Shown here: one piece after another, positions 9,306-63,998 of the stretch
Numbering within the stretch: the stretch's first letter is position 1
Layout of the letters: the number at the start of each line of letters is the position of its first letter
Assembly (NCBI GenBank): GCA_948433085.1
Contig: CAOJDP010000003.1
Location: forward strand, 5,787 to 69,786
Origin: an uncultured Bacillales bacterium
GTDB taxonomy: Bacteria; Bacillota_I; Bacilli_A; RF39; UBA660
Direction of reading: 5' to 3'
DNA: 64,000 nucleotides
The notes under the pieces: generated by a model
The model's database searches: none
What the model saw: the letters and a program-made list of their open reading frames with translations, nothing else
What the model was told of the DNA's origin: nothing
Position numbers and translations under genes: made by a program

Positions 9306-10154
9306 ATGCCAAAATTTTATAATGGATGTTATGATATCGTTTTTAAGACAGTAATTTGTGATGAAACAAATCCTCATATGTTAATCCAGTTTTTAGAGCC
9401 AATTTTAAAGGAGAAAATAGAAAACATAGAATATCTTCAAAATGAATTAAAAATGAACGATGTAAATGAAAGAAGAAAAATTATTGATTTACTAGTAAAA
9501 ACAGAGAATAAATATATACACGTAGAATTAAATCAAAATTACAAAGATTATTTACATATCAGAAATTTTTGCTTTTTTACGAATATCTATTCTAAGAATA
9601 CAAGGAAAGGAAATGCGTATGACTTGGTAAGTGAATACCTTCATATTGATTTATCTTATGGGGTGCATGATGAACAAGAATATAGGGAATATTGTGTAAT
9701 GGATCAAGGTAACCATTTGTATATAAAAAATTTTAAAATTATAGAATACAATATGGACAGGATAACGCAATTTTGGTATACTGCAAATAAAGAAAAGATT
9801 CAAAAATATAAATATTTAATCATGTTAAAAATAGATAGAGATTCTTTAAATGAACTTTCTAAAGGGGATAAATATATGGAAGAGTATAAGAAAAAAGTAG
9901 AGGAGTTAAATGATTCTAATGCTTTTACGAGTTGGATAACACCAGAAGAGGATGCAGAGATGATATTGAATACAGAAAAACATATTTCTTTTGACCAGGG
10001 AAAAGCTGAAGGAAAGGCTGAAGGAATTGAGATCGGGATAAAACAAACGGAAATAGAAACCGCTAAGAAAATGTTAATGGAAGGATTATCAATTGATTTG
10101 ATTATGCGAGTTACCAATTTGACAGAGAAACAAATAGAACAGATGAAGGCATGA
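9306..10154 (+). CDS. Rpn/YhgA-like PD-(D/E)XK nuclease (putative transposase_31 family recombination-promoting nuclease)
   Basis: N-terminal ...YDIVFKTVI...IDLLVKTENKYIHVELNQ (D...ExK core). The C-terminal region has the characteristic GKAEGKAEGIEIGIKQ...AKKMLMEGLSIDLIMRVTNLTEKQIEQM helical module. RBS GAGGAGG upstream. Confidence 0.75.
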   Translation: MPKFYNGCYDIVFKTVICDETNPHMLIQFLEPILKEKIENIEYLQNELKMNDVNERRKIIDLLVKTENKYIHVELNQNYKDYLHIRNFCFFTNIYSKNTRKGNAYDLVSEYLHIDLSYGVHDEQEYREYCVMDQGNHLYIKNFKIIEYNMDRITQFWYTANKEKIQKYKYLIMLKIDRDSLNELSKGDKYMEEYKKKVEELNDSNAFTSWITPEEDAEMILNTEKHISFDQGKAEGKAEGIEIGIKQTEIETAKKMLMEGLSIDLIMRVTNLTEKQIEQMKA

Positions 10155-40879: not shown

Positions 40880-41788
40880 ATGATAAAAAATATAAGAATG
40901 GATGTACTTCCAAAAGGTAAAATTATTCCACCAATTTATGATTTTATGTTTACTACTATATTTAATAAGGAAGAAAATATTGTAATATTAGAAAATTTTT
41001 TATCCCTTTATTTAAAAATGCCGTTAGAAAGCATGAAAGGAAATGTGAAGATTCGGTCAAGAAATTTAATGCTTGAAAATAAACATGCTGCAAATAAACA
41101 AGTTGATTTACTATTACAGTTAGAGAATGGTAAAATCAATATAGAAGTATCTACTGGAATATCTAGTGGTATTATTAATCGAAATTTGGTATTTATATGT
41201 AATGCACATTCTACTAGTTATCAGTATGGAGATAGTGATTATACTAAATTAGGCTCTACAATTCAGATTAATTTAGTGTATGATAAGCAACATTTCGTAG
41301 GAAAAAAATTTAGAGAAGAATATTATATGCGTGATGAACAAGGAAATATACTGACTAAAAATTTGAGAATTGATTATGTAAATATAGCAAGATTAAAAGA
41401 ATCGTGTTATACTAATAGTATAGACGAGATAGAAAATTTTTGTAGGGCATTAGTTACAACAAATGAAGAGGAATTTAAAAGGTGGATGGGTGGAATGAAT
41501 ATGGAATGGGAAGCAAAGGAAAAAATGGAAGAGGAGGTATTGAAGTACAGTAATGATCAAGAGGTAATTGCAATTTATTCCAAGTATACGAAAAAGGAGT
41601 TAGAAAGAAATACACTGTTACATGATTGGAAAGAAGAAGTGTTCAAAAATGGAATCGAACAGGGCATTGAGTATAATGTACCCTATAATGTACCCATAAG
41701 TATGGACAATTATAGAAGGGAATCAAAAAAGGAATCCAAAAGGGAATGCGTCAAAAAAGTATTGAAATTGCAAAAAAATGTTGCATGA
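40880..41788 (+). CDS. Second Rpn/YhgA-like PD-(D/E)XK nuclease paralog
   Basis: The core DLLLQLENGKINIEVSTG parallels DLLVKTENKYIHVELNQ of the 9306 gene. It has a Lys/Glu-rich C-terminal tail. GAAGGAGGA RBS. It sits between dgkA and cdd. Confidence 0.65.
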   Translation: MIKNIRMDVLPKGKIIPPIYDFMFTTIFNKEENIVILENFLSLYLKMPLESMKGNVKIRSRNLMLENKHAANKQVDLLLQLENGKINIEVSTGISSGIINRNLVFICNAHSTSYQYGDSDYTKLGSTIQINLVYDKQHFVGKKFREEYYMRDEQGNILTKNLRIDYVNIARLKESCYTNSIDEIENFCRALVTTNEEEFKRWMGGMNMEWEAKEKMEEEVLKYSNDQEVIAIYSKYTKKELERNTLLHDWKEEVFKNGIEQGIEYNVPYNVPISMDNYRRESKKESKRECVKKVLKLQKNVA

Positions 41789-49689: not shown

Positions 49690-50712
49690 ATGAAAAATAT
49701 ATACGGAATGACACTGGAACAATTAGAAGATTATTTTTTAGCACACAATGAAAAAAAATTCAAAGCAACACAAGTTTATGAATGGCTATATAAAAAAAGA
49801 GTAACTTCTTTTTCCGAAATGACAAATATAAAAAAAGAAACCTTAGCATATATGAAACAAGATTTCAGTATGCAATCAATACAAATTCTAACCCAAAAAG
49901 AGGGAATAGATGTCATTAAATTTTTGTTTGTATTAGAAGACCATAACAAAGTAGAAGCAGTACTTATGAAACATGATTATGGAAACAGTTTATGTGTGTC
50001 TACAGAAGTTGGATGTAATATGGGATGCTCATTTTGTGAAAGTGGAAGACTCAAAAAAGTGAGACATTTAGAAACATACGAGATGGTTTTACAAATACTA
50101 GAAATTGAAAAACAATTCCATATTCGAATTTCGCATGTTGTATTGATGGGAATTGGAGAGCCTTTTGATAATTATGAAAATGTAATTCAGTTTATATCTA
50201 TTATCAATAATGGAAAAGGGATTGATATTGGTGCAAGACATATCACAGTATCTACTTGTGGCATTATTCCTAAAATAGAAGCATTCATAGAAGATGGGAA
50301 ACAAGTCAATCTTGCTATTAGTTTGCATGCTCCAAACAATATGCTTAGAAGTCAACTCATGCCAATTAATAAGATTTATCCAATTGATAAATTAATTCCT
50401 ATTTTAAAAAAATATATTCAAAGGACAAATCGTAGAGTAACTTTTGAATATATATTATTAGAGCATGTGAATGATACAGAAGCATGTGCTTTAGAATTGG
50501 CAGAACTTTTAAAAGGAATGAATTGCTATGTCAATTTAATTCCTTATAATGAGACTAGCCATGTAGAATTTAAAAAAAGCTCCAAGGAAACCATTATGCG
50601 ATTTTTAGATATTTTAAAAAAGAATAAAATCAATGTAACAATTCGTAAAGAATTTGGTGGTAATGTGGATGCAGCATGTGGACAATTACGTTCAAATTAT
50701 GAGGAGGCATAA
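49690..50712 (+). CDS. rlmN: 23S rRNA/tRNA m2A methyltransferase RlmN (radical SAM)
   Basis: CNMGCSFCESG radical-SAM motif and typical RlmN length and context. Confidence 0.92.
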   Translation: MKNIYGMTLEQLEDYFLAHNEKKFKATQVYEWLYKKRVTSFSEMTNIKKETLAYMKQDFSMQSIQILTQKEGIDVIKFLFVLEDHNKVEAVLMKHDYGNSLCVSTEVGCNMGCSFCESGRLKKVRHLETYEMVLQILEIEKQFHIRISHVVLMGIGEPFDNYENVIQFISIINNGKGIDIGARHITVSTCGIIPKIEAFIEDGKQVNLAISLHAPNNMLRSQLMPINKIYPIDKLIPILKKYIQRTNRRVTFEYILLEHVNDTEACALELAELLKGMNCYVNLIPYNETSHVEFKKSSKETIMRFLDILKKNKINVTIRKEFGGNVDAACGQLRSNYEEA

Positions 50713-50713
50713 T

Positions 50714-51454
50714 ATGGAATATTCCTATATGACGGATCCTGGAAAAGTAAGGGATCATAACGAAGATAGTGTAATAATAATTGAAAATAGAAATAAAGAA
50801 ATATTACTTGCAGTTGCAGATGGAATGGGGGGACATCATGCAGGAGAAGTCGCATCTAGTATTGCAATTTCTCATATTGGAAAACGCTTTAAAGAACTGA
50901 GCTCTGTTGGAAACAAAGAAGATGCAATTCATTGGTTACAAGAGACTGTAAGTGAAGTCAATGTTTTAATTTATAAACATACCATTGAACACCCTGAAAG
51001 TAAAGGAATGGGAACTACGTTAGTTACTTGTATTCTTACACCAGACTTTCTATTGTTTGGAAACATTGGAGATTCTTCAGGTTTTGCGATGCGAAAAGGA
51101 AAAATTCATAAAATTACAACAGATCATACTTTAGTCAATTTACTTGTAAAATCAGGAGAATTAACTGAAGAAGAAGCTAAAGAACATCCAAGAAAAAATG
51201 TATTGATGAAGGCATTGGGGGCAACTACCACAGTAGATATGGACATCTTTGATGTTGAACCAGATGTAGATGCTGTTATGCTATGTAGTGATGGTGTAAC
51301 GAATATGTTAGATTTTGAACAAATTGAAAAAGTGTTAAATGAGGATTTAACAACAGAACAAAAAGTTTCAAAAATGATACAGAAATGTAATAATCGTGGT
51401 GGAAATGATAATATCTCTGTTGCGTATTTGAGTAAAGGTGGTAGTGCAAAATGA
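50714..51454 (+). CDS. stp: PP2C-family Ser/Thr protein phosphatase (Stp/PrpC)
   Basis: DPGKVRDHNEDS, AVADGMGGH and DGV motifs. GAGGAGG RBS. Lies immediately upstream of the PASTA kinase. Confidence 0.9.
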   Translation: MEYSYMTDPGKVRDHNEDSVIIIENRNKEILLAVADGMGGHHAGEVASSIAISHIGKRFKELSSVGNKEDAIHWLQETVSEVNVLIYKHTIEHPESKGMGTTLVTCILTPDFLLFGNIGDSSGFAMRKGKIHKITTDHTLVNLLVKSGELTEEEAKEHPRKNVLMKALGATTTVDMDIFDVEPDVDAVMLCSDGVTNMLDFEQIEKVLNEDLTTEQKVSKMIQKCNNRGGNDNISVAYLSKGGSAK

Positions 51455-53232
51455 TTACAAGAGGACAAAAAATAAATGATCGTTATCAAATTATTCGAAC
51501 AATTGGAGAAGGTGGAATGGCCAATGTATATTTGGCACATGACTTAATTTTAGACCGTGATGTTGCTGTAAAAATACTAAGAGGAGATTTAGCCAATGAT
51601 GAGAAATTTGTCAGAAGATTCCAAAGAGAAGCAATATCTGCTAGTAGTTTAACACATCCAAATATTGTAGGAATGTATGATGTAGGAGAAGATGATGGAA
51701 AATATTTTATTGTGATGGAGTATATTGAGGGAAAAACTTTAAAGAATTTAATTAAAAAAAGAGGACTCTTAACATTATCAGAAGTTATTGATATCATGTT
51801 ACAATTGACAAGTGGAATTGCATGTGCTCATGATAGTTATATTATTCATAGGGATATCAAACCACAAAATGTGCTAATCTTAGATGATGGAACTGTCAAA
51901 ATTACAGATTTTGGAATCGCTATGGCACTGAATAGTAATGAATTAACACAAACGAATTCTGTTATGGGGTCTGTTCATTATTTACCACCTGAACAAGCCA
52001 ATGGGACAGGCGCAAGTATTAAAAGTGACATTTACTCCTTAGGTATTTTAATGTACGAATTGTTAACAGGAAAGCTTCCATTCAAGGGAGAAAATGCAGT
52101 AGAAATAGCCATTAAACAAATGAAAAATCCAATCCCAAGTATTTGCGATGACTTTCCAGATATTCCACAAAGTATAGAAAATATAATTTTAAAAGCGTGT
52201 GCTAAAAATCCTAAAAATCGTTATGAAAATGTAATGGAGATGCATAATGATCTTGAAACAGCTTTAAGTAAAGAACGCGCTGATGAAAAAAAATGGATAT
52301 ATCGATATCCTGAGCAAGATGGAGAAGAAAAAGTAAATATCAGTAGGTTTAAAAAGAACGAAGAAAAAAGAACAGATGAGAAAGAAAACAAAAAAGAGAA
52401 AAAGGCAAATAAGGTTTTGTGGATTACAGGAATTTTGTGTGTGCTGGCTGTTGTGATTGGCGTTACAATCATGCTCTTTGTTCCTAAAATGACAACAGTA
52501 CCTGATGTGGAAGTACCAGATGTTGCGAAAATGAGTGTAGTCAATGCAGAAGCAACCCTCAAAAAAGAAGGATTTGAAGTCGCAACAGATGTTGAAGAGG
52601 AATATGATGCCGAAATTGAAGCAGGTTTTGTAATTGGGACCAATCCAAGCGTTGGAAGAAGTGTTAAGAAAGGAACGAAAATTACTTTAGTGGTTTCTAA
52701 AGGCTTTGAGGGGATTGTGGTAGAAAATTATGTGGGGGAGAATATCAAATCTATTCAAGCAGCTTTGGAAGAACAAGGTATCGTTGTTTTAATAGAACAA
52801 AAAGAATTTAAAACTACTGATGATCAAAAAGAGGATATTATTTTAGAACAGGACATTAAAGAAGGAGAAAAATTGAAAAAAGGTGGTACAATCGTATTTC
52901 AAGTATCCACATTAGTTACTGTATATCCAGATTTTGTGAAAGAAGATTGGACATATGAAGGTATTGAAGAGTTTTGTGCAGAACATGGTATTTCATTGTC
53001 TAAAACCGAAAAAGAAAATGATTCTGTTCCTGAGGGTACTATTTTAGAACAAAGTAGGGAAGCAGGTAGTAAAGTTATGAGTGGGGTATCATTACGCATT
53101 ACTGTATCCAAAAAGAAACCAGTAGTTGAAAAACCAAAGGATGATCCAAAAGAAGATAACAAAGATGGTGAATCTACAGATCCGTCTACAAATAAAGAAA
53201 ATGACGATGAAGATAGTAAAAAAGGTGTTTAA
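51451..53232 (+). CDS. prkC: Ser/Thr protein kinase with C-terminal PASTA repeats (PrkC/StkP type)
   Basis: Hanks kinase motifs (VAVK, HRDIKPQN, DFG, a PPE-like region), a TM helix, then three PASTA-like repeats and a basic/acidic tail. Confidence 0.92.
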   Translation: MITRGQKINDRYQIIRTIGEGGMANVYLAHDLILDRDVAVKILRGDLANDEKFVRRFQREAISASSLTHPNIVGMYDVGEDDGKYFIVMEYIEGKTLKNLIKKRGLLTLSEVIDIMLQLTSGIACAHDSYIIHRDIKPQNVLILDDGTVKITDFGIAMALNSNELTQTNSVMGSVHYLPPEQANGTGASIKSDIYSLGILMYELLTGKLPFKGENAVEIAIKQMKNPIPSICDDFPDIPQSIENIILKACAKNPKNRYENVMEMHNDLETALSKERADEKKWIYRYPEQDGEEKVNISRFKKNEEKRTDEKENKKEKKANKVLWITGILCVLAVVIGVTIMLFVPKMTTVPDVEVPDVAKMSVVNAEATLKKEGFEVATDVEEEYDAEIEAGFVIGTNPSVGRSVKKGTKITLVVSKGFEGIVVENYVGENIKSIQAALEEQGIVVLIEQKEFKTTDDQKEDIILEQDIKEGEKLKKGGTIVFQVSTLVTVYPDFVKEDWTYEGIEEFCAEHGISLSKTEKENDSVPEGTILEQSREAGSKVMSGVSLRITVSKKKPVVEKPKDDPKEDNKDGESTDPSTNKENDDEDSKKGV

Positions 53233-54074
53233 TGCGAGGTAGAATTGTCAAAAATATTAGTAATGATTATACAGTAGAGTCTGAAAATAATATTTATATT
53301 TGTAAAAGTAGGGGAAAATTTCGGAATCTGCACATTACACCATTAGTAGGGGATTATGTAACATTTGATGAGAATAATTGTTATATTTTGGAAATAGAGA
53401 AAAGGAAGAATGAACTTGTTCGTCCACCTATTTCTAATATTGATCAGGCTTATTTAATTACAAGTGTGAAAAATCCTGATTTTTCTAGTAATTTGTTAGA
53501 CAAATTATTAGTGATTGTTGAGTTTCATAATATTAAACCAATTCTTTGCTTTACTAAAATAGATTTATTGAATGCAACGGAAAAAAAAGAGATGGATTTG
53601 ATTATCGACTACTATAAAAAAATTGGTTATACAGTTTACTATAATACAGAGTTAGAAAAAATTAAGACTTCGTTTCAAAATAAAACTAGTGTTTTTACGG
53701 GTCAAAGTGGAGCTGGGAAATCCACTTTATTAAATAAAATTGATGCATCTTTGAATCTTAAAACAGATGAAATTTCTTTTGCATTAGGAAGAGGAAAACA
53801 TACAACAAGACATGTAGAATTGATCCCTTTATGTAGTGGTTATGTCGCAGATACACCTGGATTTTCAGCTATTCAATTTTCCGAAATGGCTCTATCTGAT
53901 ATCAAGGATCAATTTGTAGAGTTTAATCTGTATCGTCATTTATGTGAATATAGTGATTGTATGCATTTATCGGAACAAAATTGTGAAATTAAAAAGAAAG
54001 TAGAAGAGAATATAATTTTAAAAAGTCGTTACGAAAATTATGTAAATTTTATAACAAAGAAAGAGAGAAAATAA
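53232..54074 (+). CDS. rsgA: Ribosome small-subunit-dependent GTPase A
   Basis: GQSGAGKSTLLN P-loop, OB-fold N-terminus and a C-terminal zinc finger (CEYSDCMH...C). Confidence 0.9.
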   Translation: MRGRIVKNISNDYTVESENNIYICKSRGKFRNLHITPLVGDYVTFDENNCYILEIEKRKNELVRPPISNIDQAYLITSVKNPDFSSNLLDKLLVIVEFHNIKPILCFTKIDLLNATEKKEMDLIIDYYKKIGYTVYYNTELEKIKTSFQNKTSVFTGQSGAGKSTLLNKIDASLNLKTDEISFALGRGKHTTRHVELIPLCSGYVADTPGFSAIQFSEMALSDIKDQFVEFNLYRHLCEYSDCMHLSEQNCEIKKKVEENIILKSRYENYVNFITKKERK

Positions 54075-54076
54075 AT

Positions 54077-54727
54077 ATGCAAGTAAGTGGCTCTATTTTA
54101 GGAATTTTGGAAAAAAATGAAAATAAAAAAGAAAAAATTGAACAATTGAGTCAAACAACATGTGACTATCTTCATTTAGATATTATTGATGGAATATTTG
54201 TAGAAGGAAAAATTACTGCAACAGAAGAGTTGCTTGCGTTGTTACAAGATATTAAAAAACCATTTGATGTTCATTTGATGGTAACAGATATTGGTACTTA
54301 TATCGATATATGGAAAGAAAAGCAACCTGCTTATATTACTTTTCATATTGAAGCAACGGAAAATCCAAGTTACTGGATTCAAAGCATAAAACATTTAGGA
54401 ATAAAAGTAGGTATTGCCATTTCTCCAACTACATCCATATCTGCTTTAAACCCTTATTTAGACCAGATTGATTTAGTTTTAGTTATGAGTATAGTACCTG
54501 GAAAAAGTGGCCAATCTTTTATTGAAAATTCAGTAGATAGAATTGAATATTTACAGCATTTACGTGAAGAGAATGGTTATTCCTATCAAATTGAAGTAGA
54601 TGGTGGTATAAATGCTGATACGCTTTCAAAAGTAAAATCAGCAGACATTATTGTGTCAGCTAGCTTTATTACCAATGCAGAAGACTATCAAGTACAAATC
54701 AATCAATTGAAAAACAAAGAATTTTAA
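54077..54727 (+). CDS. rpe: Ribulose-phosphate 3-epimerase
   Basis: TIM-barrel motifs HLDIIDG, HLMV and MSIVPGKSGQSF; 216 aa. Confidence 0.92.
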   Translation: MQVSGSILGILEKNENKKEKIEQLSQTTCDYLHLDIIDGIFVEGKITATEELLALLQDIKKPFDVHLMVTDIGTYIDIWKEKQPAYITFHIEATENPSYWIQSIKHLGIKVGIAISPTTSISALNPYLDQIDLVLVMSIVPGKSGQSFIENSVDRIEYLQHLREENGYSYQIEVDGGINADTLSKVKSADIIVSASFITNAEDYQVQINQLKNKEF

Positions 54728-54801
54728 AAAAGTTCTTTTTTTTTGTAAATTGAAAGGAAATAAAAAACTTTCATTGTATGTTAAAAATGAAGGAGGAGAA
54801 C

Positions 54802-57519
54802 ATGAAAACAAAAAAATTTCTCTGTTTGTTATTGCTGATTGGAATATGTGTTGTGTTTCAAATGGAAACAATTTCTGCAGAAGTAGCAAATGATCGTTTT
54901 TACGAGGGAGAATACATTTATGGAACTTACTATAAAAAAGTAAAGAATGGAGTTGGAAGATATGAAACTGCCCGTTTTTTAAACCGATCGGATGGCGAGT
55001 TTGTCTATTGTCTACAGCCATTTATAGAATTTGTAAATGGGGAATTACAAACGGCATATGATGAGGATTATGCGCTAGTAACAGGACTTACAGAAGAACA
55101 GTGGAGTCGGATAGCATTACTCGCTTATTATGGCTACCAGTATCGCCACCATACAGATTCTAAATGGTATGCGATTACGCAATTATTAATTTGGAAAACA
55201 GTAGATCCCAATAGTGATATTTATTTTACGGATACATTAGATGGAAATCAGTTGTCTCTTTATGCATCAGAAATTAAGGAATTAGAACAATTGATTTTTA
55301 ATCATGAATTATATCCTGATTTTGGCAATCAAAAAATGATATTGTCACCAGAACAAACAATAGTACTTACAGATAATCATCATGTTTTAAATCAGTTTTC
55401 TGTCAATCATGATACTGATATTTTCGCGCAGATTAGTGGAAATCAACTTATAATTACAGCAAAGTATTATGGGAATTATCAAATCAATTTGGTAAAAAAA
55501 GATTCTCTTTATGCAATACCGCCAATAGTATATGTGGCAGAAGAAGGGCAGGATGTATTCACAGTAGGGTCATACCCACCTTTACAAAAACAGATTACAA
55601 TTGAAGTGGCAGGTGGGAGAATTCGTTTAAAAAAAGTAGATCGTGAAACGACGATTGCGCAAGGTGATGCGTCTTTAATGGGAGCTATTTATGAAGTATA
55701 TGATCAGAATCAAAATTTAATTTCCACATTATACATTGATGAAAATCAAACAGCAGAAACAGATTTATTATCTTATGGATTATATACCATTAAAGAAGTC
55801 AAAAGCAGTACAGGATATCATTTAAATCCAAAAATTTATGAAGTGGAATTGGCTTCTGATTATGCAAATATTGTAGTGGAAGAAGATGTGATAAAAGGAA
55901 ATATTCAAATTACAAAGCTAGATTCCAAAACAGGAATTTGTAAACCACAAGGAGAAGCTTCTTTAGCAGGTGCAGTTTATGGAATTTATAATTCGTCTAA
56001 TGTATTGGTAGATCAAGTAACAATTGGAACTGATTGTATTGGTTTTTCTAAAAAATTACCATATGGTATTTATGATATAAGAGAGTTAACTAGTAGTAAA
56101 GGCTATTATGTAAGTGGAGAATTACATAGTGTATATATACAAGAAGAAAAAACTTATTCGGTCATTTCAAAGGAGCCCATTATTGAAAATGAATTTGAAA
56201 TATATAAATTTTATGGAATAGTAGGTACAGAGAAGATTCGCGTAGAACCAAATGCAATTTTTGAATTAATAGATTATAACAATCAAGTGGTAACTACAAT
56301 TACAACGAATGAAAATGGATATGCTAAAATAAAATTGCCATATGGTAATTATAGATTACATCAAGTTTCTGGTGTAAAAGGGTATGAATTACTTGATAAT
56401 TTTTTATTTCAAGTTAATGAGACTTCACGAAATTTACAAATCTATTATTTTCATAATGGGATTTCAGCTGCTAAGTTAAAAGTAATTAAGATAGATAGTA
56501 ATACCAAAAAAACTTTATCCAAAGCAAAATTTAAAATTAAAAATTTGGATACTAACACTTATATATGTCAAACAATAGATGAGACGATTTGTGAATTTGA
56601 AACCAATGAGGAAGGGTTTATGATTACTCCTTTTCCATTAGAAATTGGAAATTATCTTTTGGAAGAAATAGAAGCGCCTAATGGATATCTGTTATCAAAA
56701 CCTGTTCATTTTTCTATTCGAAAAAACGATGCTTCTTTTATTGAAGATGATTTCTATGGACCACTTTTTCAAATTGTATATGAAAATACACCAATAGTTG
56801 GACAAATAGAAATTTCCAAATTGGGGGAGAAGATTATAATAAACGAAGATACATTCATCTATAGCTCAATTCCATTAGATAAGGTTCAATATGGTATATA
56901 TAATCAAGAGGGAATTTTAGTTGAAATATTGATAACCAATACAGAAGGTTATGCGAAAAGTAATTTTCTGCCATTAGGTATTTATTATTTAAAGGAAATT
57001 AAAACTTCAAATCAACATGTATTAGATGAAACCGAATATTTAGTAGAGTTATCTTCTGTGGATCCAAATACACCAATCATTTTTTCAAAAGTTTCATTTC
57101 AAAATCGTTTAGCAAAAGGAAATCTTTGGATTCAAAAGGTAGATACTGAAACAAAGTTGGGAATTGCAAATACGAAAATTGCAATTTATACAGAAGAGGG
57201 AATATGTATTCATCAGGGGGTAACAGATGCGGATGGTAAACTTTTTCTTTCCAACTTATGGATGGGTAAATTTTATATAGAGGAAGTAGAAAGTGCTGAG
57301 GGGTATCAATTGCGCAAAGAAAAAATTTATTTTACAATTGAAGAAAATGATGAAACAGTAGAAATAATGATGGAGAATGAAAAAATTGGAGAAGTATTAG
57401 GTGTTCATAAAGAAATAGAAGTACCAGATACTTTATTAGTACAACATAATTATTTGGATATTTTTTCTATCTTTTACTTTGCTGGTAGTATTTTTATTTT
57501 GATATATGGGAAGAATTAG
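54802..57519 (+). CDS. Cell-surface adhesin with N-terminal thioester domain (TED) and multiple SpaA/Cna-B-type repeat domains; C-terminal sortase-type anchor
   Basis: Signal peptide. TED motifs YCLQP (Cys, nt about 55009) and AITQLLIWK (TQxxΦW, nt about 55180). At least six repeats of the form G(D/E)ASLxGAxYxxY...GxYxIKExxxxxGY. The C-terminus has a VPDTL motif, a hydrophobic segment and a short basic tail. GGAGGAGA RBS. Confidence 0.7.
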   Translation: MKTKKFLCLLLLIGICVVFQMETISAEVANDRFYEGEYIYGTYYKKVKNGVGRYETARFLNRSDGEFVYCLQPFIEFVNGELQTAYDEDYALVTGLTEEQWSRIALLAYYGYQYRHHTDSKWYAITQLLIWKTVDPNSDIYFTDTLDGNQLSLYASEIKELEQLIFNHELYPDFGNQKMILSPEQTIVLTDNHHVLNQFSVNHDTDIFAQISGNQLIITAKYYGNYQINLVKKDSLYAIPPIVYVAEEGQDVFTVGSYPPLQKQITIEVAGGRIRLKKVDRETTIAQGDASLMGAIYEVYDQNQNLISTLYIDENQTAETDLLSYGLYTIKEVKSSTGYHLNPKIYEVELASDYANIVVEEDVIKGNIQITKLDSKTGICKPQGEASLAGAVYGIYNSSNVLVDQVTIGTDCIGFSKKLPYGIYDIRELTSSKGYYVSGELHSVYIQEEKTYSVISKEPIIENEFEIYKFYGIVGTEKIRVEPNAIFELIDYNNQVVTTITTNENGYAKIKLPYGNYRLHQVSGVKGYELLDNFLFQVNETSRNLQIYYFHNGISAAKLKVIKIDSNTKKTLSKAKFKIKNLDTNTYICQTIDETICEFETNEEGFMITPFPLEIGNYLLEEIEAPNGYLLSKPVHFSIRKNDASFIEDDFYGPLFQIVYENTPIVGQIEISKLGEKIIINEDTFIYSSIPLDKVQYGIYNQEGILVEILITNTEGYAKSNFLPLGIYYLKEIKTSNQHVLDETEYLVELSSVDPNTPIIFSKVSFQNRLAKGNLWIQKVDTETKLGIANTKIAIYTEEGICIHQGVTDADGKLFLSNLWMGKFYIEEVESAEGYQLRKEKIYFTIEENDETVEIMMENEKIGEVLGVHKEIEVPDTLLVQHNYLDIFSIFYFAGSIFILIYGKN

Positions 57520-58078
57520 CATAAAAGTATGTTGGATTTTGCTTGGAATCTTTTTACTTAGTTGGAAAAGGTCAAATACAATTGTTTCTTCCAATTTAGT
57601 AAAGGAAGAAAAAAAGATCGAAACTTTTATGATGCAGGAAGAAATAGGAGAAATTCGATTAGATTCGAGCGAAATGGATTCTTATATTGCAGTGATTGAA
57701 ATTCCTAAAATAGGTTTGAAAAAGGGTTTGTATGCAAAGAATAGCCCATATAATCAAGTGGATCAAAATATTCAAATTCTAGAATCTGATTCTCCTGATG
57801 TTTTGTATGGTAATTTCATTCTAGCAGGACATTCTGGCTGGGGAGAAATGGCTTATTTTAATTATCTTCATCAATTAGAATATCAGGACATCGTACTTAT
57901 TTATTACGAAGGGATTTGTTACCAATATCAAGTTGTAGATATTTATGAAATTGAAAAAACGGGAACTGCTAAAATTAAAAGAAATCCGAATCAAACCGTA
58001 TTGACTTTAATTACATGTAAAGAAAATAATAAACAACTTGTTATTATATGTGAATGTATATATCGAGAACTTTATTGA
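57506..58078 (+). CDS. Sortase (class B-like)
   Basis: N-terminal membrane anchor, catalytic His in ILAGHSG, the active-site TLITC motif and a downstream Arg. Overlaps the adhesin 3' end by 14 nt. Confidence 0.8.
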   Translation: MGRISIKVCWILLGIFLLSWKRSNTIVSSNLVKEEKKIETFMMQEEIGEIRLDSSEMDSYIAVIEIPKIGLKKGLYAKNSPYNQVDQNIQILESDSPDVLYGNFILAGHSGWGEMAYFNYLHQLEYQDIVLIYYEGICYQYQVVDIYEIEKTGTAKIKRNPNQTVLTLITCKENNKQLVIICECIYRELY

Positions 58079-58165
58079 AAAATAATGTTTATGTAACATT
58101 CGTATTTTTATTCAAAATTATTTATTTTTATTACAATAAATTATGTTGTACAATAGATAACTTTC

Positions 58166-58192
58166 AAAGAGGCCAATGCCTCTATTTTTTTG
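58166..58192 (+). terminator. Rho-independent terminator after the adhesin-sortase unit
   Basis: AGAGGC / GCCTCT stem with loop CAAT, followed by ATTTTTTTG. Confidence 0.5.
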
Positions 58193-58211
58193 TGTAAATA
58201 TGTAAAAATCC

Positions 58212-58240
58212 TTTACAAATTATCTTAAAAATAGTAAAAT
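58212..58240 (+). promoter_or_regulatory. mraZ (dcw cluster) promoter
   Basis: TTTACA, 17 nt spacer, TAAAAT. Confidence 0.45.
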
Positions 58241-58249
58241 GATGGTAGT

Positions 58250-58275
58250 AAGTGGTTTAAAGTGGCAAAAAGTGG
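58250..58275 (+). promoter_or_regulatory. MraZ operator: three AAGTGG direct repeats with 10 bp periodicity
   Basis: AAGTGG at 58250, 58260 and 58270, between the -10 element and the mraZ start. This matches the known MraZ-box architecture. Confidence 0.5.
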
Positions 58276-58284
58276 GTGATTCTT

Positions 58285-58716
58285 GTGTTCATGGGAGAAT
58301 ATCATCATACAATAGATGACAAGGGAAGATTGACACTTCCATCAAAAATACGTGAACAACTGGGGGATGAATTTGTTGTTACAAGAGGTTTAGATAATTG
58401 TTTATTTGTATATCCGAAAGAAGAATGGAATCAAGTAATTACAAAATATAAGGAATTACCAAATACCAAAGATGCAAGAAACTTTATGCGCTTTTTGTTG
58501 TCAGGGGCAACCATTACATTGTTTGATAAACAGGGTAGAATCAATATACCAATACCACTTAGTAAATATGCTTCTTTAGAAAAAGAATGTGTAATTATTG
58601 GTGTAAACGACCATTTAGAAATATGGAGTCTAGACGCTTGGAATCAATTTATTGATACCAATGAGGAAAACTTTTCTGATATAGCTGACAAACTATTTGC
58701 AATAGAACTTGGGTGA
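58285..58716 (+). CDS. mraZ: Transcriptional regulator MraZ
   Basis: (V)FMGEYHHTIDDKGRL...VTRGLDNCLF... matches the MraZ double SpoVT/AbrB-like pattern. A GTG 58285 start gives MFMGEY as in B. subtilis; GGGTGA RBS. Confidence 0.9.
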   Translation: MFMGEYHHTIDDKGRLTLPSKIREQLGDEFVVTRGLDNCLFVYPKEEWNQVITKYKELPNTKDARNFMRFLLSGATITLFDKQGRINIPIPLSKYASLEKECVIIGVNDHLEIWSLDAWNQFIDTNEENFSDIADKLFAIELG

Positions 58717-58720
58717 AATT

Positions 58721-59638
58721 ATGCATAAAAGTGTCTTATTAGAAGAATGTTTGTATTACTTAAACTTAAAAGGAGATAGTATAATTGTTGATTGTACTTT
58801 AGGTTATGGAGGGCATAGTAGCGAAATTTTAAAAAGAATACCACAAGGGTTTTTATACGCATTTGATCAAGATCAAGAAGCAATTACATATAGTCAAAAA
58901 CGTTTACAATCCATTTCATCTAATTATGAAATTATTAAAAGTAACTTTGTGTATTTGCAAGAAGAATTGCAAAAAAGAGATATACAAGAAGTAGATGGTA
59001 TTTTATTTGATTTAGGTGTTTCTAGTCCACAATTAGATGAAGATTATAGGGGCTTTAGTTTTCACAAGGATGCGAAATTAGATATGCGTATGGATTTAGA
59101 AAATCCAATTTCTGCATATGAAGTCGTCAATCAATATACATTAGAAGATTTGATTCGTATTTTCAAAGAATATGGAGAAGAAACCTATGCATTTAGTATT
59201 GCATCTAGTATTGTGAAAAAAAGAAAAGAAAAGTCAATAGAAACTACGCTAGAATTAGTGGAGATTATTAAGGCGAGTGTTCCTGAAAAATACAAAAGGG
59301 AAAAACATCCAGCACGTAAAGTGTTTCAAGCAATTCGTATTGAAGTCAATCATGAATTAGAAGTGTTTGAGAATGCATTAGAACAAGCTTTGTCAAAAAT
59401 CAAAATTGGTGGAAGAATTTGTGTGATTACGTTCCATTCCTTAGAAGATCGAATTTGTAAAAACAAATTTAAAGAAGTTAGTCAAGTCGATGTAAGTTTA
59501 AGCAAATTACCAGTTATTCCAGAAGCATACTTACCTAACTTTAAATGTATCAAAACACTAGAAACAAAAATACAAGAACGAAAAGAAAATAATCGTGCGA
59601 GAAGTGCGAAATTACGTGTGATTGAGAGAATAAAATAG
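58721..59638 (+). CDS. rsmH: 16S rRNA (cytosine1402-N4)-methyltransferase RsmH
   Basis: SAM-binding DCTLGYGGHS and FDLGVSSPQLD motifs. GGGTGA RBS before ATG 58721. Confidence 0.92.
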   Translation: MHKSVLLEECLYYLNLKGDSIIVDCTLGYGGHSSEILKRIPQGFLYAFDQDQEAITYSQKRLQSISSNYEIIKSNFVYLQEELQKRDIQEVDGILFDLGVSSPQLDEDYRGFSFHKDAKLDMRMDLENPISAYEVVNQYTLEDLIRIFKEYGEETYAFSIASSIVKKRKEKSIETTLELVEIIKASVPEKYKREKHPARKVFQAIRIEVNHELEVFENALEQALSKIKIGGRICVITFHSLEDRICKNKFKEVSQVDVSLSKLPVIPEAYLPNFKCIKTLETKIQERKENNRARSAKLRVIERIK

Positions 59639-59649
59639 GAGGAGAAAAT

Positions 59650-59946
59650 ATGGCAAAAAAACAAGTAAGAAAAGTACGTATTACAAAAGGTGAAAGATTA
59701 TTATACATAACAGCTGTTCTATGTTTTTCTTTGACCATATTATTAAAAATATTTTGTGGAGCAGGTACCCAACATTTAAGCATGAGTGTTGAAAAAGTAC
59801 GTTATGAAATCAATGATCAAGAAAAACGAAATGAAAGTTTAACAATGCAAGTGAATGAATTAACTGCTTTTGATAAAATTAAAGATGTTGTCAAAGATAT
59901 GGGATTAGCGTATAATAATGATAATATCATAGTCATTGATGATTGA
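59650..59946 (+). CDS. ftsL: Cell division protein FtsL-like (small bitopic membrane protein)
   Basis: 98 aa with a basic N-terminus, one TM helix and a coiled-coil C-terminus. Conserved position between rsmH and pbp. Confidence 0.6.
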   Translation: MAKKQVRKVRITKGERLLYITAVLCFSLTILLKIFCGAGTQHLSMSVEKVRYEINDQEKRNESLTMQVNELTAFDKIKDVVKDMGLAYNNDNIIVIDD

Positions 59947-59954
59947 GGTGTAAA

Positions 59955-62150
59955 ATGGAAAAGAAAAAGAATCACAAAACATGGAAAGTACCAAAATATA
60001 TGTTTTATTTCTTTTTCTTTTGTCTTTTTTTATTGTACATTCAGTTTGCCTATTTATCATTAGCTAAAACTGTATATGGCAAAGATATGGATGTTTTTGC
60101 AGAAACAAGAAATACAGTACATAAAACAATCAAAGCAACCCGTGGACGTATTTATGATATTAATCAAAATATACTTGCACTCAATGTTAGTTCTTATACA
60201 ATCATTGCTCATTTAGAAAAAAGTAAAGTTTATATGGGAGAAAATTATATCAAAAATAATGAAACAGATATCGTTGCAGAACAATTAGCTACAGTATTAG
60301 AAGTAGAAGCAGATTTATTAAAGGGTTATTTCAATCGTGGAAAAGAAAAAGATGTTTATCAAATTGAACTAGGAAGTGCAGGTAAAGGAATCACTGAATT
60401 AAAAAAGGAAGAAATAGAAGCTCTGGGGATAAAAGGAATTGATTTTACAGAAAGTCAAAAGCGTTATTATCCAAATGGTGATTTTGCTTCTTATGTAATT
60501 GGATACGCAAAAGATAACGAAGTTGTAGAAACAGATGAAAATGGAAATGTAGCTAAAATTATAGAAATTGTCGGGGAATTAGGGATTGAATCTAAATACA
60601 ATGATTTGTTAAAAGGAACAGATGGTTTTTTAGAATATGAAAGAGATCGTTATGGATATAAAATTGCAGGAACGAAGGAAACATCAGTAGCAAGTAAAGA
60701 TGGATATGATGTTTATCTTACAATTGATTCTAATATCCAAAGATTTATTGAAACAGCTATCAAAGATACTCAGAATATATATCATCCTGAATGGCTTATG
60801 ATTACTGCTATGGATGCAAAAACAGGTGATATTTTAGGGACAAGTGCGACACCGTCTTTTAATCCAAATTTAAGGGATTTAGTCAACTATGAAAATCCAT
60901 TGATTTCACAACCATTTGAACCAGGATCTACAATGAAAACTTATACTTATATGTGCGCTATGGAAAATGGAAAATATGATGGAAACGAATCATTTTTATC
61001 AGGTCAATATCAAATTGGAGAAGATACTGTAAATGATTGGAATAGTGGTGTTGGATTTGGAGTCATTACATTAGATAAAGGTTTTGAATATTCAAGTAAT
61101 GTTGGAATTGCAAATCTAATAGAAAAACATCTTTCAAGAAATGAACTTCAAGATTGTTTTCAAAAGTATGGTTTTGGTAAAAAAACAGAAATTGAATTGG
61201 CAAGAGAACAAGCTGGAAATATTAAGTTTACTTATCCAATTGAAATTGTAACTGCAGGATTTGGACAAGGAATTACGACAACAGCAATTCAGCAATTACA
61301 GGCACTTACTTTAATTGCAAACGGTGGCAAAATGCTAACCCCACATATTGTCAGTAAAATTATAAATCCTAATACAGGAGAACTTTATTATGAAAGAAAA
61401 ATAGAAGAAAGTGAACAATTAATCAAAACATCTACAGTCACTAAAATAAAGGAATTAATGTACAATACAATTCATGGAAGAGATGCAGGCTCAACAGGTT
61501 ATCCTTATGATATTGAAGGATATGAAATTATTGGAAAAACAGGGACTTCCCAAATTTTTGACAATGCATCTGGAACTTATATGGTAGGAAGTAATGCTTA
61601 TATTTTCTCTTTTGCGGGCATGTATCCAAATGATGATCCTGAAATTATTATTTATGCAGCTATGAAATTGCCTACACATGGTGCAAGTATAGGGCTATCT
61701 ACCGCAACCAAATCTGTAATGGAAAGTATTGCAAAATATAGAAATATGTTTACAACAAATGATAGTGTAGTAGAACAAAAAACATATGAACTGACTTCAT
61801 TTTATAACAAACCAGTAGAGGAGGTTGTTTCGAAGTTGCATCAGAATGGAATTACGCCTGTGGTTATTGGAAATGGGAATCGTGTTATCACACAATCTAT
61901 ACCAGAAGGAACGAGATTAGTAGAGGGAGATACTTTAATTTTATTGACGAATGGAACAGAATATACAATGCCTAATTTATATGGTTGGAGTCGTAAAGAT
62001 GCAGTTTCATTATTTGAACTTTTACAAATACCATATCAAATCGATGGTTATGGTTTTGTTACCAATCAGAGTATCCCTGAAGGAAGCTTAATTACGAAGG
62101 AAATGACCATTTCTTTAATACTAGAATCAAAAATGAATGCAACAACATAG
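59955..62150 (+). CDS. pbpB: Class B penicillin-binding protein (FtsI/PBP2B/SpoVD type) with two C-terminal PASTA domains
   Basis: TM anchor, dimerisation domain and transpeptidase motifs STMK (SxxK), SSN and KTGT, followed by two PASTA repeats. Confidence 0.9.
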   Translation: MEKKKNHKTWKVPKYMFYFFFFCLFLLYIQFAYLSLAKTVYGKDMDVFAETRNTVHKTIKATRGRIYDINQNILALNVSSYTIIAHLEKSKVYMGENYIKNNETDIVAEQLATVLEVEADLLKGYFNRGKEKDVYQIELGSAGKGITELKKEEIEALGIKGIDFTESQKRYYPNGDFASYVIGYAKDNEVVETDENGNVAKIIEIVGELGIESKYNDLLKGTDGFLEYERDRYGYKIAGTKETSVASKDGYDVYLTIDSNIQRFIETAIKDTQNIYHPEWLMITAMDAKTGDILGTSATPSFNPNLRDLVNYENPLISQPFEPGSTMKTYTYMCAMENGKYDGNESFLSGQYQIGEDTVNDWNSGVGFGVITLDKGFEYSSNVGIANLIEKHLSRNELQDCFQKYGFGKKTEIELAREQAGNIKFTYPIEIVTAGFGQGITTTAIQQLQALTLIANGGKMLTPHIVSKIINPNTGELYYERKIEESEQLIKTSTVTKIKELMYNTIHGRDAGSTGYPYDIEGYEIIGKTGTSQIFDNASGTYMVGSNAYIFSFAGMYPNDDPEIIIYAAMKLPTHGASIGLSTATKSVMESIAKYRNMFTTNDSVVEQKTYELTSFYNKPVEEVVSKLHQNGITPVVIGNGNRVITQSIPEGTRLVEGDTLILLTNGTEYTMPNLYGWSRKDAVSLFELLQIPYQIDGYGFVTNQSIPEGSLITKEMTISLILESKMNATT

Positions 62151-62197
62151 TTTACCATTTTAGCAGATTATGATAAAATAAATATAAGGTGATGAGA

Positions 62198-63370
62198 ATG
62201 AAAAAAGGTTTTACACTAATTGAATTATTAGCAATCATTGCACTCATTGGTATTGTTGCTTTGGTTGTATTTCCTGTTGTGTTAAAGAGCATACAAAATT
62301 CCAAACAAAATTTGTACGATATTCAAGTACGCGAAATCGAACAAGCAGGGGAAAAATGGGCAACAGAACATATTCAATATATGGATCGTACGCATTTAAA
62401 TTCGACAGGCGTTTCTTTATATAGTTTGATTTCTGCTGGGTATCTGCAAAGAAGTAAAGTGATGGATCCTAGACATCAAACAGAAATGAATGGTTGTATT
62501 CTAATTTCATATGATTCAAAAATCAATCAATATCAATATCATTATACAGAAGAGGTTTGTAGTCAAGCGATTACAAATGGTTATGTATATGAATTACAAG
62601 GCGACGGATGGAAACAACTTGAGGTGAATCCAATTGCTTCCGCAGCGGATGCCATAATTGATTATTATGCTAGTAATAATTTAATTAAAGCAGAAGGTCA
62701 AATGACAGCTGGTTTTTATGATGAAGGAGAACGTTATGTATTTCGCGGTGGAACAGTGAATAATTATGTAAAATTAAATGGTGGAACAGAAATTTACCGT
62801 ATTCTAAGCATTGATAAATCAACAGGCTCTATACGTTTAATGGGAACAACTGCAATCCCAAATTCATGGGATAGCGAAGGGGGACTTGTATTTGAAAATG
62901 CAAGCATAGTTACTGTACAATTGGATAATTATTATAATAATAGTTCGAATGGAATTCTTTTGCATGCGTCTAAAGTGGAAACAAACGTTAAATGGAATGT
63001 AGGTGCAATTACTGGTGATGCTTCTTACGATGTATTAAAATCATTAGAAAATGACCGTATTGCTTATACAAAAATTGGACTTCCATCTATTAGTGATTAT
63101 GTAGGAGCCTCTCCTGATTTATCTTGTCATTCTTCTATTATATCCGATGCATGTAAACAAGAAAATTATCTATATGAATTATGGAAAGATAAAAATACTT
63201 GGACAATTAATACAGACAATACGCAAGTGTGGTATGTGAATGAAAATGGAATATTGAATCATGCAGATCCGAGTACAATTTATTATATATATCCAGTGAT
63301 TGCACTTAAAAATAATGTTTATATTGAAACTGGTGATGGAAAACCTACAAGTCCTTATATATTTCAATAA
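62198..63370 (+). CDS. Large prepilin-type N-terminal cleavage/methylation domain protein (type IV pilin / pseudopilin-like)
   Basis: Class III signal MKKGFTLIELLAIIALIGIVALVV (the G|FTLIELL prepilin peptidase site) followed by about 360 aa of globular domain. AAGGTGA RBS. Confidence 0.6.
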   Translation: MKKGFTLIELLAIIALIGIVALVVFPVVLKSIQNSKQNLYDIQVREIEQAGEKWATEHIQYMDRTHLNSTGVSLYSLISAGYLQRSKVMDPRHQTEMNGCILISYDSKINQYQYHYTEEVCSQAITNGYVYELQGDGWKQLEVNPIASAADAIIDYYASNNLIKAEGQMTAGFYDEGERYVFRGGTVNNYVKLNGGTEIYRILSIDKSTGSIRLMGTTAIPNSWDSEGGLVFENASIVTVQLDNYYNNSSNGILLHASKVETNVKWNVGAITGDASYDVLKSLENDRIAYTKIGLPSISDYVGASPDLSCHSSIISDACKQENYLYELWKDKNTWTINTDNTQVWYVNENGILNHADPSTIYYIYPVIALKNNVYIETGDGKPTSPYIFQ

Positions 63371-63479: not shown

Positions 63480-63998
63480 ATGGATTTAAGAAGTATAAAA
63501 GAGTTTATAAAAGATACAATTAAATATATTGTGATAGCAGTCCTTGTATTATTATTAATTATTTATGTGGTATCTTTGCAACAAGTAGTAGGACCATCTA
63601 TGAGTCCTAATTATCAAGATGGTGACATTCTTATTTTGAATAAATTGCAATATAGGCTCACAAAACCAACTCGTTTTGATGTAGTTGCTGTCAAATATAA
63701 AGATACCAAATATTTTATTAAGCGGGTGATTGGATTACCAGGAGAAACGATTGCTTATCAAAATGGTATTTTATATGTCAATGGAAAAAAAGTAGAAGAA
63801 AAATTTAAAACAACAGAAACAAAAGATTTTACTTTAAAAGATATAGGATATGAGAAAATACCAGAAGGCTTTTATTTAGTCGTTGGAGATAATCGGGCAA
63901 ATTCATTGGATGGCCGTTCTAAAGAAGTAGGTCTAATCTCAGAAGAAGATTTTATTGGTAAAGTTTTTCTTCGAATATGGCCTTTTAGAAGAAAGTAG
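63480..63998 (+). CDS. lepB: Signal peptidase I
   Basis: Catalytic Ser in GPSMSP, Lys in KRVIGLPGE, and the GDNR box. Confidence 0.85.
   Translation: MDLRSIKEFIKDTIKYIVIAVLVLLLIIYVVSLQQVVGPSMSPNYQDGDILILNKLQYRLTKPTRFDVVAVKYKDTKYFIKRVIGLPGETIAYQNGILYVNGKKVEEKFKTTETKDFTLKDIGYEKIPEGFYLVVGDNRANSLDGRSKEVGLISEEDFIGKVFLRIWPFRRK

Follow-up and report, generated by a model that had tools for sequence, protein, structure and literature searches.

A predicted thioester adhesin and its overlapping, arginine-less sortase in an uncultured Bacillales bacterium

The adhesin and sortase genes

We analyzed a 64-kb stretch of DNA from an uncultured Bacillales bacterium (contig CAOJDP010000003.1; hereafter the window, which is the part of the genome in view and to whose positions all coordinates refer), in which a large surface protein of the TIE type and a small sortase are encoded by two overlapping genes. 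Both genes, and all of their features given below, lie on the forward strand. The open reading frame (ORF) of the surface protein ends at 57519 and can start at either 54778 or 54802. Because a Shine-Dalgarno sequence, AGGAGG, is read at 54791..54796, 5 nucleotides 5′ of the ATG at 54802, we take the latter as the start, and the adhesin (54802..57519, stop codon included) therefore has 905 residues; an earlier reading of the same DNA from its letters alone, here called the sequence-only reading, had given 906. The sortase gene (57506..58078, 190 residues) shares 14 nucleotides with the 3′ end of the adhesin gene, and the pair fills the gap between rpe, which ends at 54727, and mraZ, which starts at 58276. 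The sequence-only reading had the overlap and the TLITC motif of the sortase right, as well as the position of the pair between rpe and the division and cell wall (dcw) cluster. We think it likely that the two genes form a surface-display cassette, in which a thioester adhesin is anchored by its own sortase, an enzyme that lacks the catalytic arginine.

A scan with a sortase profile, using one genome per species, matched 196 loci, of which 80 were kept; the window's own genome is not among the 80. At 76 of these loci a large adhesin ORF with a sorting signal ends at, or overlaps, the start of the sortase gene. Where a contig holds them whole, the paired adhesin ORFs are typically 800–1300 residues long, and the adhesin precedes the sortase in all seven neighborhoods that were read. 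The two genes therefore constitute a conserved cassette, and the frequency of the pairing, together with every neighborhood read, is strong evidence at the level of sequence for the dedicated substrate and enzyme that had been proposed earlier. One database protein of 1229 residues (P0057) is an in-frame fusion of an adhesin, IPKT-L, a membrane segment, KKKQNKK and a sortase in which the glutamine discussed below is kept. This could be a real fusion, or it could reflect an insertion or deletion in the A-rich overlap that codes for both the lysine tail of the adhesin and the lysine-rich N-terminus of the sortase.

Thioester domain and stalk of the adhesin

The first 26 residues of the adhesin are a predicted signal peptide (54802..54879) that begins with MKTKK and continues into a hydrophobic core (hydropathy above 2 at residues 3–17), with a putative cleavage site at ISA/EV suggested by the A-x-A-like sequence ISA. 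It is followed by a class II thioester domain (TED) comprising residues 27–271 (54880..55614), which matches the Pfam family PF08341 with 30.9 bits against a cut-off of 22. A sequence search of the PDB with the adhesin returned BaTIE (6fwv) and SaTIE-TED (6fx6). An AlphaFold2 model of residues 27–285, for which 15 homologues served as input, has a predicted local distance difference test score (pLDDT) of 89.9, and the only structures matched by this model in Foldseek at E < 1e-3 are 6fx6 (template-modelling (TM) score 0.67/0.73), 6fwv and 6fwy, the three solved class II TEDs. Sequence, invariant residues and predicted fold thus all bear out the assignment as a TIE-type thioester adhesin.

Class II TEDs carry the motifs [YFL]CΦζ, ΦQζΦΦ and TQxxΦW (Miller et al. 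2018, PMC6194298). In BaTIE the bond joins Cys71 to Gln266, the glutamine lying far downstream of the cysteine; the TQxxΦW motif flanks the thioester bond, is non-essential for its formation and does not supply the bond-forming glutamine (PMC6194298). In the window adhesin, Y69-C70-L-Q fits [YFL]CΦζ and is aligned to FCIEP in SaTIE-TED and to YCL in BaTIE. Along SaTIE-TED, with which the domain shares only about 20% identity, the aligned stretches are FCIEP, ATQMLIWE and naQkvgv, and Gln250 falls on the glutamine of SaTIE-TED. The search for homologues of the adhesin found 2904 sequences. Cys70, Gln127 and Gln250 are invariant in 99 of 99 distinct homologues, and within the auxiliary motif T126-Q127-L-L-I130-W131 (Gln127 at 55180-55182) the glutamine and the tryptophan are kept in all 99, the threonine and the isoleucine in 97. 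The sequence-only reading had located the thioester signature in YCLQP and AITQLLIWK. Both motifs are present and the cysteine was correctly chosen, but the glutamine of AITQLLIWK belongs to TQxxΦW, and the predicted thioester pair is therefore Cys70 (YCLQP, 55009-55011) and Gln250 (EEGQDVF, 55549-55551), between which a bond is predicted to form. Their spacing of 180 residues compares with that of Cys71 and Gln266 in BaTIE and with about 180–195 residues in class II domains, where the glutamine comes after an inserted β-sandwich.

Behind the TED stand six SpaA/CnaB-type domains (55615..57387), whose approximate bounds, set by eye from K-x-D and Y-x-x-x-E motifs, are residues 272-365, 366-463, 464-555, 556-666, 667-770 and 771-862. 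The family PF17802 matches in six stretches with 237 bits against a cut-off of 23, which confirms the stalk of SpaA/Cna-B repeats seen in the sequence-only reading, and the PDB sequence search finds homology to the CnaB domains of BaTIE. In an alignment of 37 full-length homologues the CnaB lysine and glutamate are invariant in domains 1, 4, 5 and 6. The triads K563/E622/N662 and K779/E828/N859 are kept in 32–37 of the 37 sequences; the asparagine is present in 35 in domain 4, while domain 6 has 32 with asparagine and 4 with aspartate. K278/E332 and K673/E732 are also conserved, with asparagine or aspartate partners that are not pinned down, and domain 3 has no conserved glutamate among the aligned homologues. 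Isopeptide bonds in the stalk are plausible and would fit the invariant lysine and glutamate residues together with the asparagines of domains 4 and 6.

Sorting signal

The adhesin ends in KEIEVPDT-L-LVQHNYLD-IFSIFYFAGSIFILIY-GKN, where the three-part layout of a sortase anchor is visible by inspection. The motif E-V-P-D-T/L (residues 873–878, 57418..57435), with predicted cleavage after Thr877, precedes a membrane segment recognized by its hydropathy (residues 887–902) and the minimal basic tail GKN, the last two together occupying 57460..57516. Among the 37 aligned homologues proline and threonine are present in 37, valine in 34 and glutamate in 30, with aspartate in 4 more; the P2 residue is N, D or S in all 37, and the residue after the threonine (P1′) varies (L, E, G, F, N, A, S, D, Y). 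A [VILM]PxT sequence lies about 30 residues from the end in 118 of the 120 best homologues. The non-LPXTG signal EVPDTL with its GKN tail, as named in the sequence-only reading, thus holds up: EVPDT is kept across homologues and is no chance match. That reading had also called for a search for other proteins with the same C-terminal motif; within the window, where all ORFs of at least 100 residues were scanned for xPx[TAS]x ahead of a hydrophobic tail, the adhesin is the only credible sortase substrate.

The closest relatives likewise terminate in YGK(x). Relatives encoded on conjugative elements mostly have VPNTG or VPSTG and a KKKRK tail, and one such C-terminus (VPNTG...KKKRK) reaches 17.8 with TIGR01167, for which the cut-off is 15.9. 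Because the C-termini of these relatives reach the cut-off of an LPXTG-anchor model, the signal is of the LPXTG type. By these alignments, that of the window is best described as a derivative of a pilin-like VPxTG without a fixed glycine, not as a motif unrelated to LPXTG, and its branch appears to have lost the glycine and most of the basic tail. Known pilin signals are VPDTG in RrgC and IPQTG in RrgB (PMC11231552). Like the window's signal, these two and IPNTG of group B Streptococcus have Val or Ile in place of Leu at P4, and VPDTG of RrgC is identical to the window motif at five of six positions. However, the pilin signals keep glycine at P1′ and are used for pilus polymerization by lid-bearing, Arg-containing class C sortases, whereas in the window family P1′ is unconstrained and the sortase has neither lid nor arginine.

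Among the known TIE adhesins, BaTIE is anchored by the housekeeping sortase A. BaTIE (6fwv), SaTIE (6fx6) and EfmTIE86 (6fwy) share with the window adhesin a signal peptide, a class II TED, a stalk of CnaB domains and, at the C-terminus, a signal for a sortase (PMC6194298). They carry a canonical LPxTG (LPATG in BaTIE), in contrast to EVPDT-L and the overlapping, private sortase gene of the window.

A sortase with glutamine in place of arginine

The sortase consists of an N-terminal membrane helix and a catalytic domain at about residues 60–190. It scores 57.7 bits with the Pfam family PF04203 (cut-off 26.6) and 42.9 with TIGR01076 (cut-off 39.35). An AlphaFold2 model (pLDDT 77.5) is matched by Foldseek to many sortases with a probability of 1.0 and TM scores of up to 0.73. 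The catalytic histidine is His109 of LAGHSG (57830-57832), and the catalytic cysteine and its preceding threonine are Thr170-Cys171 of TLITC (58013-58018). In the model, Cys171 lies at the end of β7 (residues 165–172) and Gln177 (58034-58036) at the start of β8 (residues 176–189), where it stands at the position of the catalytic arginine. When the family profile was compared with solved sortases, the best matches were 4d70 (E 8e-17) and 2kw8 (E 2e-11), both of class D, and Gln177 was aligned with the catalytic arginine of each (kdRyiv and skRyvv, respectively). The hhalign alignment of the profile to S. aureus SrtA, for which an approximate sequence was used, ended before the arginine and did not place Gln177, because the β7/β8 loop of SrtA is longer.

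In 154 usable representatives, obtained by clustering at 50% identity, His109, Cys171 and Gln177 are conserved at 100% and are the sole invariant residues of charged or catalytic type; Thr170 is conserved at about 96%. Gln177 is also kept in 121 of 121 close homologues, in all 77 genome-locus sortases that were read and in the chromosomal relatives. There is no invariant arginine anywhere in the domain of these representatives. None is conserved at positions 172–179, nor does one emerge when the alignment is moved one or two positions. Candidate stand-ins were rejected as unconserved across the clade: Arg159, the best arginine column, is arginine in 65%, position 172 is a mixture of K, R, T and S, Lys176 is lysine in 62%, and Arg114 is arginine in 26%. 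Lys151 (57956-57958), in the E-K-T-G turn before β7, is conserved at 99% across the clade, and Arg159 (57980-57982) is conserved only in the conjugative-element subgroup; either might contact the conserved glutamate at P5 of the signal. The family comprises 515 representative clusters at E ≤ 1e-30, and conservation of this kind across them speaks for an active enzyme.

None of the NCBIfam class cut-offs is reached, with 60.6 bits against 160 for class C (NF033745), and 27.9 against 165 (NF033746) and 34.6 against 140 (NF058671) for class D. Could the sortase nevertheless be a pilus-type polymerase, which joins adhesins head to tail or to an unseen backbone pilin? The best of the NCBIfam scores is that of class C, the sorting motif resembles VPDTG of RrgC and IPQTG of RrgB (PMC11231552), and adhesin residues 557–643 match a major-pilin domain model. 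We nonetheless judge this very unlikely. The class C score is far below its cut-off, the sequence has no DP[FWY] lid motif, and ahead of β1 the model shows a helix and then a disordered stretch. No YPKN-type pilin motif is seen in the adhesin sequence, no second pilin gene occurs in any neighborhood read, and the best solved relatives are anchoring sortases of class D.

These relatives, C. perfringens SrtD (4d70) and B. anthracis SrtC (2kw8), are like the window sortase in being small, in having a single N-terminal membrane helix and no lid, and in their TLxTC and AGH motifs. They differ from it by the catalytic arginine, which they have where the window family has an invariant glutamine, and by their substrates, which are LPNTA or of the LPxTATN type as against EVPDT-L. 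LPNTA is one of the signals of these two solved class D sortases, and LPQTGS is another.

The Cys-His-Arg triad of sortases has been described as ubiquitous, and it is debated whether the arginine stabilizes the oxyanion or positions the substrate (PMC9520033). In S. pyogenes SrtA the arginine hydrogen-bonds the P4 and P3 carbonyls and makes no contact with the scissile P1 carbonyl, and the oxyanion hole is built by the threonine preceding the cysteine; moreover, an evolved SrtA variant in which the arginine is exchanged for serine is still efficient, with altered specificity (PMC9520033). These contacts and the serine variant make a working glutamine enzyme plausible. The evolved S. aureus SrtA, which is specific for LMVGG, resembles the window sortase in its lack of a triad arginine and in its altered specificity (PMC9520033). 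It is, however, engineered and heavily mutated, whereas the replacement in the window clade is natural, always to glutamine, and fixed across hundreds of clusters. We found no description of an Arg-less or glutamine-bearing sortase clade in the literature searched, which is not proof that none exists. Work by Bentley et al. in J Biol Chem in 2008 reportedly found that S. aureus SrtA with citrulline at Arg197 keeps much of its activity, which would favor a neutral hydrogen-bond donor.

Genomic setting

With few exceptions, the hosts of the 80 loci are uncultured Bacilli, Clostridia or "Tenericutes" from gut or rumen, represented by metagenome-assembled genomes (MAGs). ParB_N homologues lie upstream of the cassette in 51 of the 80 loci, and genes of a type IV secretion system (T4SS; VirB4-like, T4SS-pilin, DUF8208) lie downstream in at least 15. 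At one locus (L003) the order is ParB, adhesin, sortase, SSB, T4SS pilin and VirB4. The sole cultured organism among the 80, Anaerofustis butyriciformans HA2171 (L061; NZ_JAYFFH010000001.1, 552422-568811), has ParA, ParB, a 197-residue ORF, a 925-residue adhesin (VPNTG), a Gln-type sortase, a 113-residue ORF and an SNF2-related protein of at least 1863 residues, and could serve for experiments on the cassette. Both gene sets are conjugative or plasmid-like. A tblastn search with the sortase against the plasmids of PLSDB gave no match at 1e-8. Two MAG contigs each hold two cassettes, every one of them with a ParB gene upstream (L004 and L008 on JAGBEP010000002.1; L054 and L068 on CAJTYF010000001.1), which suggests several related mobile elements per genome.

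The surroundings of the window copy contain no mobile-element gene adjoining the cassette, and tblastn found no ParB or T4SS homologue in the whole window. In the window and at three further loci (L002, L084 and L085) the cassette follows rlmN-PP2C-pknB-rsgA-rpe, and at a fourth (L086) it stands beside genes for a penicillin-binding protein (PBP), MraY and FtsW. The same place after rpe in three related assemblies points to vertical inheritance, while the differing downstream genes at the four loci indicate that the junction has been rearranged within the lineage. A horizontal insertion into the window was considered and set aside, given the absence of an adjoining mobile-element gene and the GC content and GC skew of the region from 54.8 to 58.1 kb, which are the same as those of the flanks. 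The usual home of the cassette family is a conjugative element, and the window copy looks like a chromosomal derivative.

Side by side with this arrangement we noted that a PDDEXK_2 gene is inserted between rpe and the adhesin gene at L002 (5040-5882), and that a gene for a 757-residue protein with N_methyl and fn3 domains lies in the same interval at L084 (4659-6932). At L002, L084 and L085 the cassette is followed by genes of the HGD-D/BcrAD-type activase and by topA.

A parallel is offered by TIEpLS20 (p34), the class II TED adhesin of the B. subtilis plasmid pLS20, an adhesin on which conjugation depends in liquid medium (Gago-Córdoba et al. 2021, PMC8092201). It has no sorting signal, pLS20 has no sortase, and the host sortases are dispensable (PMC8092201). 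TIEpLS20 is thus like the cassette family in its class II TED, its Cna-type domains and its conjugative-element home, but unlike it in that the family always brings its own sortase and that the window copy is chromosomal. In its usual setting, the cassette family probably serves to attach cells to one another on behalf of conjugative elements.

The window cassette itself may be a leftover of such an element that still serves attachment between bacteria, in mating pairs or aggregates, instead of attachment to host or dietary surfaces. The position of most family members between ParB and T4SS genes, the need for TIEpLS20 in liquid-medium conjugation (PMC8092201) and the MAG contigs with two copies speak for this. 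Near the window cassette, however, there is no ParB, relaxase or T4SS gene, core operons flank it, its GC content and skew are those of the flanks, and its relatives keep their place after rpe in three assemblies and lie beside cell-division genes in a fourth, as vertical inheritance would predict. On balance we consider it rather improbable that the copy is a conjugative leftover in this sense. The idea concerns the target of the adhesin and not its mechanism, and it is compatible with anchoring by the cassette's own sortase. In the chromosomal setting of the window, the cassette would now supply a gut Bacilli lineage with a resident adhesin.

Proposed mechanism and implications

Gene content, domain homology, invariant residues and the conserved pairing and signal allow us to propose how the cassette could work. 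The 905-residue precursor would be secreted via Sec. Its TED would spontaneously form the Cys70-Gln250 thioester, which could react with an amine on the target surface and so attach the adhesin covalently, while the six CnaB/SpaA domains, the majority of them probably locked by Lys-Asn isopeptide bonds, would hold the TED far from the cell. The C-terminal membrane segment and the single-lysine tail would keep the precursor at the membrane, where the membrane-anchored sortase would recognize E-V-P-D-T and Cys171 would cleave after Thr877 to give a thioacyl intermediate. The predicted substrate peptide is KEIEVPDTLLVQ, cut after its threonine. The enzyme would then transfer the adhesin to an amine of a peptidoglycan precursor, the presumed wall acceptor. 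In the Cys-His-Gln active site, Thr170 would make the oxyanion contacts and Gln177 would supply, in place of the arginine, the hydrogen bonds that position the substrate. This site goes with the shifted signal, in which P4 is Val or Ile, P5 is Glu and P1′ is little constrained.

Several points weigh against this mechanism. Thioester, isopeptide bonds, cleavage and wall linkage all rest on homology, and Gln177 is placed relative to Cys171 and His109 by aligning the sequence with two class D sortases and by predicted secondary structure. The C-terminus of the window adhesin matches neither TIGR01167 nor PF00746 even at E ≤ 10, and its tail has a single lysine, so that retention and sorting may be inefficient. 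With 64 kb in view, it is possible that the genome has other substrates or sortases elsewhere. The R216A mutant of S. pyogenes SrtA is inactive, and exchange of the arginine for alanine abolishes activity in the studied sortases (PMC9520033); the glutamine enzyme might thus be slow or do something other than transpeptidation.

Taken to its end, this last point, together with a signal that has no P1′ glycine, a minimal basic tail and no match to anchor profiles, would make the Arg-less sortase no transpeptidase at all. It would then be an inactive, degenerate partner, with the uncut adhesin held by its C-terminal membrane segment only, or a protease that releases the adhesin. We regard this as unlikely, since 154 divergent representatives show conservation of His, of Cys and the Thr before it, and of Gln, the substrate motif is conserved as well, and synteny of the pair holds at 76 of 80 loci, a pattern unlike that of a decaying gene. 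A releasing protease would need the same motif, so that only the fate of the acyl-enzyme would differ from that in the anchoring mechanism.

Returning to an anchoring enzyme, we put forward, more tentatively, that the clade may constitute a natural sortase class with a Cys-His-Gln site and no catalytic arginine, which would recognize E-[VI]-P-[NDS]-T, cleave after the threonine largely regardless of P1′, comprise hundreds of clusters and owe its spread mainly to conjugative elements of gut Firmicutes. There are precedents for class II TED adhesins, for sortases linked to their substrates and for sorting motifs without Leu. As far as we can tell, what is new is a natural clade of sortases with glutamine for arginine that has one substrate family and a P1′-free E[VI]PxT signal. 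If such enzymes are active transpeptidases, the triad arginine would be dispensable for sortase chemistry and would serve substrate positioning or specificity. The fixed glutamine and the conserved private substrate make this debated role testable with one enzyme and one peptide. Protein engineers would in that case gain an enzyme for ligation whose motif is orthogonal and whose P1′ is free or permissive. For the microbiology of the gut, the loci show that conjugative elements of uncultured Bacilli and Clostridia commonly carry adhesins with a predicted covalent "harpoon" together with an anchoring enzyme of their own, and that such cassettes can settle in the chromosome. Furthermore, since the signals of the cassette escape standard LPXTG annotation, counts of sortase substrates in such genomes are underestimates.

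Flanking features

A terminator-like hairpin, AGAGGC-CAAT-GCCTCT, lies at 58168-58183 on the forward strand, 90 nucleotides past the stop codon of the sortase gene; ATTTTTTTGT follows directly 3′ of it, and the element with its T-run extends over 58168..58192. In a consensus scan it is the sole terminator-like site in 54500-58400. The sequence-only reading had given the cassette its own terminator at 58166. Hairpin and T-run are indeed there, but the site counts as a consensus match only, because shuffled sequence likewise gives about one site and one is thus expected by chance.

Within 49690-62150, nothing but the cassette parts the block rlmN-PP2C-pknB-rsgA-rpe from the division cluster mraZ-rsmH-ftsL-pbp2B. 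Directly after pbp2B, and before the gene for signal peptidase I (63480-63998), the forward strand encodes a 392-residue protein (62192-63370) that carries an N-terminal methylation motif of the prepilin type (PF07963, 26.7 bits). Elsewhere in the window, two genes resembling transposases of the PD-(D/E)XK family (PF12784, 53 and 56 bits) are located on the forward strand at 9306-10154 and 40880-41788.

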